Below are positions 13,146-16,895 of a stretch of 64,000 nt of DNA, in pieces. Source of the DNA: Octopus vulgaris (taxonomy: Eukaryota); assembly GCA_951406725.2 (NCBI GenBank), contig OX597817.1, forward strand, positions 33,542,001 through 33,606,000, read 5' to 3'. The position numbers and the translations under genes are program-made. Every line of letters starts with the position of its first letter. Within the stretch, counting starts at the first letter, position 1. A model generated the notes under the pieces. That model searched no databases. It was given only the letters and a program-made list of their open reading frames with translations, and was not told the DNA's origin.

Positions 13146-14116
13146 TCTTGCGCTGACCAAAGCGCTGTGAAGGAAATTAAGTGAAAATTGTGTGGAATCT
13201 CGTTAGATGGATTATATCAGTAAAAGAAAAAATCAGCCATGTTCCACACCGTATCATCTAGTAGTAGCAGTCGTAGTAGTTTGGGTTGCTCAGGAATTTC
13301 AGGATTTGTTTTTAAAATTCGTTTTAGAGATAAGGTCGTAAAGGAAGTAAGTTTAAGAATTTCCGAGTAGTTTCCGAGTAAAATCCCTCGTTGGAAATGT
13401 TTTAAAAATCTTTTATTTTCTCGTTGTTTATCATGCACAAATACAGGGAAATCTTATTATTTCTAAGTCTCTCTAACGGCAGCGGTACTGGATATTAACA
13501 GTTATTGCCAAGCTAATATGGCAGTCCATAAATATAGGACGTAAGCTGCCGTTGATTAGCTCCAAGAGGCCATAGCCTCTAGCTAGCTATATGACACACG
13601 CACCTGTGTCCATTATAACCTTCGAACAGAAGAGGTCAGCCGCTTCCCCTTGCTGATCAGATTTAGAAATAGACAATACCAAACGAGTTCCCTATGGATA
13701 CCGTATTTATTACAACGAGTGGCTTGTAAACGTATAAATACGGTATCCATAGGGAATGAGTTTGGTATTTTATTTATTACACACGAATAAACGACCATAT
13801 TTTATTAATCTAATAATTAAATTCTTCACATCATGTTGAAGCGCGCATGAATACAGCTTGATTTCACGTCAGTGACGTCACAATGTGTAACTGTAAAAGA
13901 TGTCATGCCGCAGGAAGATAGTCCGACTTTATAGCGCTAAGTTTTCAGGTGAAATGACTGATAACTGATGACTATTTAACATTTTGTTAACATTCAAGTT
14001 CACGTTCAAGAAATACATAACACAGATTGAATCTTCAATAACTTTAATAATACTCAAACATGTTTTCGAGTAGCAATGTCAGTCAGAGAATAGTCAGCAC
14101 AATAGTCCAGGAAAAC

Positions 14117-15673
14117 TTAACAGTCCTCATTATCTGTGAGACGAGGTCGCTTTGCATCTGAACCAAAGAAGTTCACATTGATTGTTCCCCCATATATTGG
14201 AGCCGAGAAAATGGAGTGCAATGAACCAAAGCAAGTGACAGCGTTCCGAGATTGACTCGACGTAACGTTGACGGTGGAGGGGAGTTCATTTGCACTCGCT
14301 GCTGCTGTGTGTGACGGAGGTACAAGCGAACCAGGCTGGTCGTTGTTGCTACTAAGGATGTTACTGATGGCACGATGACGATCCATGTAACTATTGATGC
14401 TTTGCACATTACGATGTCCAGATATCTGCATGATTTCAGTTGGAGGAATGTTCTGGTCAGCGAGCTTCTGCACAAGGCATTTGCGTGCTGAATGGTTCGT
14501 GAATCTTCGATTGTCCAAACCAGCTGATTTAGCCATCCTTTTCATAATTGTACCTAGTTTGTTGACACCGACCGGTTGACGTTTAAACCAGGGATGAGAA
14601 TGGGAGGCATCTTTGCAGTTGGTGGCCAAATAAAATGGTGAATCCGGCGATGAATAATCTGATGGTCTCAGATCAGCAAAACGCTTGTACAGGTTAACTG
14701 GACAACGCCCATCATTCGTCGCCCATGCTTTTGGGTAGATGTTACGTGCATGGTCGAGATTATCACCTTGACAAGTTTTGGACTGTCGCTCCCTAAACTG
14801 AAGGAATTCCTTGCCTTCATTGTCAACATGCAAAGAAACGTCGCTCCATCGCATGTCGTTGTGAGGTTTGACACTCCGGATACCAAAGTGAACGGTGTTG
14901 TTCCACCATAGCGTGTTGAGGATGGATTCAGGTGTGTTCGGACCGAGCTGGTCACATTCCCATAGCTTGTTGATATCATCGTCGGAGAGAGATTCCGCGC
15001 GTCGAGGTAGGTTTCCCATTCCTTCACTTTTCAACAGCTTTTGCTTTGTTTTTAGTACATCATGTAGTTTCACGAATGTCCCGTCCGAGAATAGTGACGT
15101 CGAGTAGTGTTTTGACTTCAGATATCTTTCAATACTGGATAACATTCCCCTCAAAGATGAAGGTTCATAGTTGCTACCGTCCGGCTTTCGCAACGAGATA
15201 AAGAAAGTACACAGAATGTCACAAAGTTCGCTTTTGTCGATAGATTCAATTGGACGCGTGTCGCCATTTGTCGCCATGAAAGCAAACAATCGTTTAACAT
15301 CATAGTTTGTTTTCCGAAGCGTGTTTTTATTTTGATTACCTTGAACGAATTTATCTATTCCAGAATGATCATACCTCGGTTGAAATTCAAGATCATTATG
15401 GCTATCATCAAAGAAATCGTCACGAAGAAGATCATTGTACACCTCATCAGGGATGTTAAATGTAGGGTTCGATGACAATCCACTCGTCGATGACACTGTT
15501 TCAGGTACCTTTGTTAACCTGTATCCAGCAACATGTCGAACTTGGCCAGTATTGGTCTTTACATTGAACATTCTGTATGTTCCAAGAGTTTGAACAACGG
15601 ATAACACTCTTCCCCCATCTTTACCATCAATCTTAACAAAATCATTCACCTTGATATCGACAACAGTAGCCAT
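14117..15673 (-). CDS. Tyrosine recombinase of the Crypton / DUF3504 (KCTD1/QRICH1/ZMYM-related) family, 518 aa from ATG 15673
   Basis: Family motifs NKNTLRKT, FFISLRKPDGSNYEPSSL, GMGNLP, RCPVNLY, PFYL and WFKRQPVGVNKL. Catalytic set in ORF-track numbering: R291 (HFGIR), K324 (QSKT), H419-x-x-R422 (TNHSARK), H445 (SGH) and Y454. C-terminal IYGGTINVNF and NLS-like KRPRL. No stops or introns. Confidence 0.92.
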   Translation of the reverse strand: MATVVDIKVNDFVKIDGKDGGRVLSVVQTLGTYRMFNVKTNTGQVRHVAGYRLTKVPETVSSTSGLSSNPTFNIPDEVYNDLLRDDFFDDSHNDLEFQPRYDHSGIDKFVQGNQNKNTLRKTNYDVKRLFAFMATNGDTRPIESIDKSELCDILCTFFISLRKPDGSNYEPSSLRGMLSSIERYLKSKHYSTSLFSDGTFVKLHDVLKTKQKLLKSEGMGNLPRRAESLSDDDINKLWECDQLGPNTPESILNTLWWNNTVHFGIRSVKPHNDMRWSDVSLHVDNEGKEFLQFRERQSKTCQGDNLDHARNIYPKAWATNDGRCPVNLYKRFADLRPSDYSSPDSPFYLATNCKDASHSHPWFKRQPVGVNKLGTIMKRMAKSAGLDNRRFTNHSARKCLVQKLADQNIPPTEIMQISGHRNVQSINSYMDRHRAISNILSSNNDQPGSLVPPSHTAAASANELPSTVNVTSSQSRNAVTCFGSLHSIFSAPIYGGTINVNFFGSDAKRPRLTDNEDC

Positions 15674-15904
15674 CTTGTTGATAGATCTACCTGCACTGCA
15701 AGAGTATCGACGAGCAGACAATATATGTTGTGATTTTTTTGGCAACAAAAAATTGAATTACGACCAGAAATTTTTATATTTTATGTGTATATGACTTTAA
15801 GTGATATCTGGTATAAAAAAGATAGTATGTTTGTTTAATTACATGGCTACATTCTACCTGCTCGTGAAAGTTTAGTTGTAACTTATGAATGACAAAAGTA
15901 GTGC

Positions 15905-15950
15905 CGTCACCGTGACCTCGGGTCATCACCATGGATTGACCAATCAGAAG
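15905..15950 (-). promoter_or_regulatory. Putative promoter elements upstream of the YR ORF (CCAAT box and short palindromes)
   Basis: GACCAATCAG at 15938-15947 and palindromes GTCACCGTGAC and TGACCTCGGGTCA, about 250 bp upstream of the ATG. Confidence 0.35.
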
Positions 15951-16895
15951 CAGCGCTCGCAGTATCTGACGTATGTTAGATACCAAAAATATCTCAAAGT
16001 GTTCTCACTCACATGTGTGTAATAAATAATAATATTTCTATTTTTGAAGACCAGTGGATGTATTCCACTGAAATTAGGTAAATATTCCTTCGAACAGACG
16101 GTCAGCAGCGACGCCTGCTGGGTTCGGCTACTCTGCATTGCTAAAGGGTAAATACCCTGAAACATGTCTGCAGATGCTTGACCAGCAAGGAGAAGAGGCT
16201 AACTTCCCCTGTTCGAAGGTTATAATGGACACACGTTCGTGTGTCATATAGCTAGCTATAGGCGATGGCCTCTTGGAGCTAATCAACGGCAGCTTACGTC
16301 CTATATTTATGGACTGCCATATTAGCTTGGCGATAACTGTTAATATACAGTGATATCATTAATGATGTATTGTTGTGCAGATGACGTAGAAGAAACTGAC
16401 AAAGCTATTACAAGGACATCACCACTGGTAGCAGCAACAAAGCCGGCCAAACTTCTGTCCCACCCTACCATCTTAAAGAAGGTAAACGTAGACACTCATA
16501 TAAAGACTGGATGGTCATGACTGGAACGCAATTCAATATATGTTTACTCGATTCGGACTTGATCAATAATAAAACAACGACGACGATGACAAACAACGGT
16601 AACAACGCCAACATTAGTTGCTACACTTATGATTACAATATCTCTAGCATTAGTTAGCAACAACAGAAACATAGTAAAAATAACCCGTTATCAACAACGA
16701 CAACAATCCCTCGACTTTTAAATCTACTTCCCTTAAGAAACTATCGTCTTGTGAAAGAAAGGCTGCAGTATTGACAGAAACAAAATCCTTCGTTAATATT
16801 TGAATGCTTTAATACATCTTTTCAATTTGATTGCCAATTTTCGAAAATTCAAAGTTTATTGAAATTTTCAAAATTTAGTAAATTAACCCATAAAG

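Follow-up and report, generated by a model that had tools for sequence, protein, structure and literature searches.

A 64,000-nucleotide stretch of the Octopus vulgaris genome (GenBank assembly GCA_951406725.2, contig OX597817.1, positions 33,542,001 to 33,606,000 of the forward strand; hereafter the window, numbered from its first letter) carries, at positions 13669-16025, an element that we class, by its domain content and the names of its homologues, as a CryptonA transposon. Near its left end lies a hairpin, and the short region directly following the inner arm of this hairpin is complementary to the far right end of the element. A recombination site laid out in this way would be split between the two ends and whole only in a circle. 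We consider it probable, at about 0.6, that integration of the element involves a folded single-stranded circle and the exchange of one strand, in the manner of integron attC sites and of the attP site of CTX phage. The structure is well supported, and it is the mechanism, with the single-stranded, circular origin of the insertions, that we infer.

The limits of the element were set by comparing the ends of independent copies. The unbiased set consisted of the first 30 loci (L175-L204) matching a 16-mer that lies wholly within the right end. In these loci, chosen without flank letters, all 32 right ends finish in TAA and diverge immediately afterwards, and all 28 left ends in range start with A(T/G/C)AGAG. 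The right terminus of the window copy is GTGTGTAATAA (16015-16025, + strand), with the cut 3' of 16025, and its left terminus (13669-13674, + strand) reads ATAGAC, most copies having ATAGAG or AGAGAG. At the recombination site, these six left-terminal bases would form the overlap, with the cut on their 5' side. The element thus delimited measures 2357 bp and has no strand assigned to it. A preliminary description of this DNA had placed its limits at 13675 and 16034, which the copies correct by 6 and 9 bases, respectively; the expectation that homology would stop at fixed ends was borne out at the corrected positions. Exact matches to the right-end 16-mer, which ends at 16023, number 293 in the genome, and a 24-mer of the internal region, starting at 13770, has 263 exact copies. 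About 290 copies of the element are present, mostly non-autonomous; among those compared at their ends, 6 others are full-length (2341-2427 bp), and the derivatives measure 364-1068 bp.

Insertion left no target-site duplication. Four of 11 other copies of the repeat that hosts the element run straight across the insertion point as TAGAA^ATAATAATATTTCT, and therefore nothing was duplicated. To the left of the cut, these copies can be matched to the window over a short span only (8 of 9 bases agree), the host copy in the window being rearranged beyond it. The tetranucleotide AATA, present at 13675 and 16031, was considered as a target duplication and rejected by the end comparison. Terminal direct repeats of 4-6 bp, a trait of fungal and oomycete Cryptons, were not found, the flanks sharing just ATA (-4 to -2) with the right end. 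Note that the 30 best left-end matches (L001-L030) were rejected as independent insertions: 25 of them (e.g., L003, L007 and L014) lie on one common left flank, with similar (TA)n right flanks. These represent a single non-autonomous Crypton insertion carried as a passenger within another repeat, and the group was therefore excluded from the target counts. A further set, L031-L060, had been selected with a query that included 9 nt of flank and was hence replaced by the unbiased loci.

The outer arm of the terminal hairpin (13675-13710, + strand) is complementary at 33 of 36 positions to the inner arm (13734-13769, + strand), as the preliminary description had reported, with GA at 13685-13686 opposite GA in the inner arm. 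Between them lies a remnant of the apex (13711-13733, + strand), recognized by comparison with long copies and, in each of the four runs examined, by loose ends at 13735. The window hairpin is a shortened form, missing 49 bp after 13735 that are present in most long copies, in which the apex contains two further CGAG/CGAG blocks and a GCGAAAGC tip. The threefold recurrence of AACGAGT/AATGAGT was likewise found, at 13682, 13714 and 13755. The internal complementary region (13770-13784, + strand) pairs 15/15 with 16015-16029, and the match ends there; 4e-6 to 2e-5 chance matches to the 15-mer are expected in 2.4 kb (order-2 Markov model, uncorrected for the selection of this 15-mer). As a feature of the element, this match holds for 11 bases, 13774-13784 pairing with 16015-16025, and the remaining four (16026-16029) are target DNA that continues it by chance. 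In the joined form, 13770-13773 stand opposite the six left-terminal bases. The corrected junction fold thus consists of 11 bp between right end and internal region, then six left-terminal bases against four, and then the long arm. The near-perfect joint that had been predicted is not there: ATAGAG (ATAGAC in the window) faces four internal bases. All non-autonomous derivatives examined with both ends retain the hairpin and the internal match. A search of Rfam with the full copy L091 returned 19 matches at E<=1, none of them at the gathering score.

The left half-site of the target, AGAA in the window (13665-13668, + strand), has the consensus ATAH (A in 24/28, T in 22/28 and A in 28/28 at -4 to -2). 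On the right (16026-16035, + strand), the target overlap (+1 to +6) is followed by the half-site TAT at +8 to +10 (16033-16035; T in 25/32, A in 19/32 and T in 17/32). ATAH and TAT are inverted half-sites around a 6-bp overlap, and from this dyad symmetry the overlap comprises +1 to +6. Cleavage by tyrosine recombinases occurs where the overlap begins on its 5' side, which places the observed cut on the + strand. The exchanged strand would therefore be the + strand, the one with the G.A pairs and predicted to fold.

Two exchanges without homology would leave a heteroduplex, and once this had been replicated about half of the insertions would have ATAGAG on the right and target bases on the left. 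This reciprocal product was found in none of the 28 insertions, all of which keep the product of one strand. Genome-wide, just 3/293 right-end matches are followed by ATAGA, and all three also have ATAGAG on the left. This outcome points to the exchange of one strand. The standing Crypton model (Goodwin et al., as cited in the available text of PMC3212892) invokes a double-stranded circle and two exchanges; applied here, overlap mismatches would always be repaired toward one strand, and the hairpin would be incidental. A weak target preference for A at +1 (18/32) fits this model. However, the element bases ATAGAG are not enriched in the target at +2 to +6, and yet 28/28 products are of one type; nor does the model give any role to a conserved, co-varying hairpin. 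We regard it as strongly disfavored.

To assess generality, we compared homologues. A profile of 52 proteins was used to collect 80 metagenome loci, the best of 435 confirmed ones, and 50 with at least 600 nt downstream of the open reading frame (ORF) were assessable. A long terminal hairpin is present in 29 of the 50, downstream of the ORF in 24 and upstream in 5; the hairpin groups were assigned by us, and five loci with a hairpin abutting the ORF were excluded. The far end was present on the contig, and the locus thus testable, for 20 of the 26 downstream hairpins; in 10 of these, the internal match to the far end exceeded all 12 control windows. The TAA^ATAG cut motif is seen again in the first homologue group, with the hairpin downstream of the ORF. 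In all 11 aligned homologue loci (the cut position being set by hand for L100, L111 and L116), the internal match is flush with the hairpin arm and in register with the cut. Pairing across the overlap is imperfect in the window and in all seven homologue loci whose left end is clear (L096, L107, L116, L138, L152, L172 and L129). In a second group (L148, L151 and L139), the ORF runs in the opposite direction with respect to the hairpin and internal match, and therefore the fold is independent of the mRNA strand.

Across the last 11 bases, in eight homologue loci compared with the window, 55 pairs are unchanged, 28 show compensatory changes and 5 are broken. Of the 7 variable positions, each right end matches 6-7 with its own partner and a mean of 2.8 with foreign partners. 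Since the proteins of these loci are 37-68% identical to each other and to that of the window, the expectation that the split complementarity co-varies across families was upheld. Based on these comparisons, the split-hairpin layout appears to be general among CryptonA relatives. Alternatively, the hairpin and internal match might have arisen by fold-back and serve no function, with template switching keeping them similar: arms that are flipped or perfected occur often, and TC occupies at least one GA position in about 13 of the 38 long hairpins of the octopus genome. However, the hairpin persists at this level of protein divergence and in every examined derivative that has both ends, and template switching erases mismatches, yet GA opposite GA is the majority state. 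Largely refuted by the co-variation, this explanation has a probability close to negligible.

The hairpin is asymmetric between strands. Three CGAG/CGAG (or CGAG/TGAG) blocks, together with the GCGAAAGC tip, characterize the window + strand of the long own-genome hairpins. Of the 38, 17 have retained the GAAA tip and all six GA, and most of the others have flipped or perfected segments. By nuclear magnetic resonance, CGAG blocks form tandem sheared G.A pairs, according to the available text of PMC10085684, and GCGNNAGC is described in that of PMC13037366 as an extra-stable DNA mini-hairpin. The CGAG/CGAG blocks and the tip would stabilize the fold on one strand only. In 26 homologue hairpins, A.G outnumber C.T mismatches 71:23 (20 loci versus 5, with one tie), with tandem G.A on one strand making up most of the mismatches.

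Several hairpins depart from the common form. In 6/38 long own-genome hairpins (L046, L052, L056, L188, L190 and L191), the apex is flipped (TTTC loop), with varying breakpoints; such apices look like flip/flop isomers of hairpin termini and may be ordinary template switches. Downstream of the ORF in L145 and L171, the hairpins mismatch as TC/TC when read in the window orientation, the GA being on the opposite strand, and no internal match exceeds the null; a similar hairpin lies upstream of the ORF in L108. The L145/L171 type may represent another design of the end or an element inserted separately. Related hairpins stand at both ends of the recombinase gene in L152 (3467-3574) and L162 (downstream), perhaps through inversion or through nested insertion at the ends. 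In many homologues, a second, shorter inverted repeat with CCAATCAG words is located about 90-180 nt before the ORF match (L111 3778-3841, L116 3074-3139, L137 3784-3855, L138 3825-3889, L143 1929-2000 and L171 63-134). The window has a CCAATCAG word at 15941-15948, within the part kept by derivatives. This repeat is possibly a promoter or binding element.

Integration of a folded single-stranded circle would proceed as follows. The + strand of the element, single-stranded on the lagging strand or in a cruciform, would be cut at TAA^ at the right end and ^ATAG at the left end, and closed into a circle by the recombinase. In the circle, the right and left ends would pair with the internal region, creating two duplex binding arms that flank a mispaired 6-nt overlap. 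The recombinase would then exchange the + strand of the circle with the top strand of a duplex target, ATAH^N7-TAT, and replication would resolve the junction. Because resolution would be by replication, no homology in the overlap would be required and no duplication made.

One strand could also be exchanged on double-stranded DNA, as in the copy-out of bacterial strand-biased circularizing integrative elements (SEs), with the internal region and right end serving as subterminal inverted protein-binding sites and the hairpin in a side role, such as second-strand priming on the circle or accessory binding. Such an exchange accounts for the one-strand outcome and for the co-variation, since two sites of one protein co-evolve, and the ACGAGT repeats could serve as duplex binding motifs. 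As described in the available text of PMC9345347, SEs circularize one strand and have a 6-bp spacer, and mini-hairpins are reported at replication origins of single-stranded phages (PMC13037366, available part). However, duplex exchange leaves unexplained why the internal match is flush with the arm and in register with the cut in the 11 homologue loci, why the overlap is mispaired and why GA stands opposite GA at three levels. It is the main rival, and we consider it unlikely.

Another possibility is that the termini are rebuilt during copying on the internal region, which would act as a template or splint like the internal complementary region (ICR) of DIRS elements, with a reverse transcriptase (RT) or host polymerase supplied in trans and the recombinase integrating an ordinary product. 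The layout is as in DIRS-1, for which the available text of PMC7192593 describes an essential ICR and single-stranded intermediates. Template switching does occur here: in L062, the inner arm has been re-copied from the left end, with a private mutation on both arms. However, the element encodes no RT, and its ORF may lie in either orientation. Furthermore, the internal region is unlike the junction in the overlap in 37/38 long own-genome hairpins and is therefore not a template of the left end. This explanation is quite improbable.

The genome was also searched with the corrected junction, yielding two matches (L061 and L062), versus none for a reversed control. L061 is a head-to-tail joint of two different deletion derivatives (633 and 366 bp), located precisely at TAA^ATAG, which is what the insertion of a circle at the end of a resident copy would produce; L062, with its re-copied arm, is not a junction. 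No RNA data set was listed, no single-stranded form was seen, and viral contigs gave 36 pattern matches with no relative among them. The circle junction looked for on the strength of the preliminary description was thus found as joined ends in the genome, at the corrected position, and no free circle was listed with it among the contigs of seven public runs. The proposal that a folded circle junction is the recombination substrate gains from the fixed ends, the co-variation and this genomic junction, as well as from the new findings of a one-strand insertion outcome and strand-biased G.A pairs. It lost its original boundaries and junction, and the folded single strand is still the conjectural part; its split-hairpin core survived the checks that could be run and is partly supported.

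Integration through a folded single-stranded circle has a number of points against it. Of the 50 assessable homologue loci, 21 fall in neither hairpin group, and 9 of the 20 testable hairpin loci lack an internal match above the null, with one tie. The eight co-variation loci were picked as positives and therefore demonstrate co-variation where the feature exists, not the frequency of the feature. The genome-wide count of right ends followed by ATAGA leaves out the AGAGAG left-end variant. The strand asymmetry is not uniform either: G.T and A.C mismatches in the 26 homologue hairpins are even (37:43), the G.A bias in the second group is weak (20:12), L145 and L171 are of opposite polarity, and DNA folding energies from ViennaRNA hardly distinguish the strands (-78.2 versus -74.7). 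The predicted recombinase is nearer to Cre than to the integron integrase IntI4 (2a3v), which ranks 42nd. For SEs, which also give a one-strand outcome, the available text of PMC9345347 invokes no hairpin. Finally, no free right-to-left circle joint was listed in the assembled contigs of the seven public runs, although contigs cannot show absence.

The element contains a single long ORF (14117-15673, - strand), encoding a tyrosine recombinase of 518 amino acids, identified by Pfam, motif location and predicted fold. Pfam matches are to DUF3504 (E 8e-26) and Phage_integrase (E 3e-8), and beyond these just to QRICH1; no GCR1_C domain was among the families found in the protein, and no RT or RNase H ORF is present in the element. 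The original view of an RT-less tyrosine-recombinase element thus stands. The recombinase residues R266, K299, H394-x-x-R397, H420 and Y429 are present, and we take their catalytic roles from motif knowledge. The predicted fold (mean predicted local distance difference test score, pLDDT, 81.6) matches QRICH1, Cre and other tyrosine recombinases, and QRICH1 was the sole significant match in a PDB sequence search. The protein is 97% identical to an octopus protein. Four residues are absent directly after Y429 relative to P0001 and P0003, and, given also the 49 bp lost from the apex, the window copy is likely defective. A second DUF3504-like gene of the genome (L088, 3104-4663), an intronless ORF of 519 amino acids with decayed catalytic motifs and without a terminal hairpin, is probably a domesticated Crypton gene.

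The element is inserted in a host repeat (13448-13668 and 16026-16351 in the window; L064-L074), which often occurs as inverted pairs of arms. Its central palindrome, TAGAAATA..TATTTCTA, was used as target by the window element. The arm at 13487-13659 (no strand assigned) has a 92% identical inverted copy at 16179-16351. This outer 173-bp inverted repeat was considered as terminal inverted repeats of the element and rejected, being part of the host repeat, which has 1757 candidate copies. Elsewhere in the window, at about 30500-33000, the DNA is extremely AT-rich, with a + strand nearly without G (GC content 9-11%, GC skew near -1), and is probably a simple-repeat array.

The element resembles other CryptonA members in its single DUF3504-type recombinase ORF, lack of RT, size of about 2-2.4 kb, many non-autonomous derivatives and animal host, as described in the available text of PMC3212892 and PMC13465315. 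For animal Cryptons, the available part of PMC3212892 reports that no terminal repeats were found ('n.d.' in supplement rows), whereas here exact ends, a target consensus, a hairpin and an internal copy of the junction are recognized. The words hairpin, palindrome and circular do not occur in the available text of the Glomhopper paper (2026, PMC13465315), nor does 'hairpin' in the main text of PMC3212892. Eulor5/6 are classed as Cryptons (PMC5753468, available part). No description of the split-hairpin layout for Cryptons was present in the literature searched, as judged for most papers from titles and opening lines of abstracts; Repbase Reports, the Dfam notes on Eulor5/6, Goodwin 2003 and subscription reviews lie outside that search and may mention a hairpin.

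Integron attC x attI (PMC3458562) and CTX attP x dif (PMC3442271) recombination likewise involve a tyrosine recombinase and tandem insertions. The available texts describe a folded single strand, a duplex target, one exchange and replicative resolution; here, the folded partner is predicted. Unlike these systems, the octopus element is eukaryotic, has a site split over two ends, encodes its own recombinase and uses degenerate targets. Its strand choice would rest on sheared G.A blocks, under a mechanism shown for attC and CTX and conjectured here. Unlike integron cassettes, it has a DUF3504-type protein, with a fold nearer to Cre than to IntI4, and no cassette array. DIRS-1 also combines a tyrosine recombinase with an internal stretch complementary to both termini, and single-stranded intermediates are described for it (PMC7192593, available part), whereas the octopus element is without RT, RNase H and inverted terminal repeats. 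Its internal region, flush with the hairpin and imperfect at the overlap, looks substrate-like rather than template-like as in DIRS. SE-6945 and SE-6283 are tyrosine recombinase elements as well, but they are bacterial, with four genes and a spacer derived from att sites, and no junction-pairing hairpin appears in the available text of PMC9345347.

The ends of animal Cryptons were previously reported as featureless. With exact limits, the position of the cut, a consensus for the target and a conserved structure of the substrate, the mechanism becomes testable with one protein and a few oligonucleotides. We lean slightly towards the view that a large part of animal CryptonA may correspond, in eukaryotes, to integron cassettes and CTX phage, moving as single-stranded circles with a hairpin site completed by circularization and strand choice by sheared G.A pairs. 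Their recombinase, the ancestor of the ZMYM, QRICH1 and KCTD1 domains, would then be a hairpin-DNA integrase with loose targets, active in animal nuclei. If so, single-strand hairpin recombination of the kind used by bacterial integrons and filamentous phages would also operate in animal germ lines. The layout would provide a structural signature for annotating non-autonomous Cryptons, and the recombinase would be a candidate single-protein integrase for single-stranded cargo, without target duplication.

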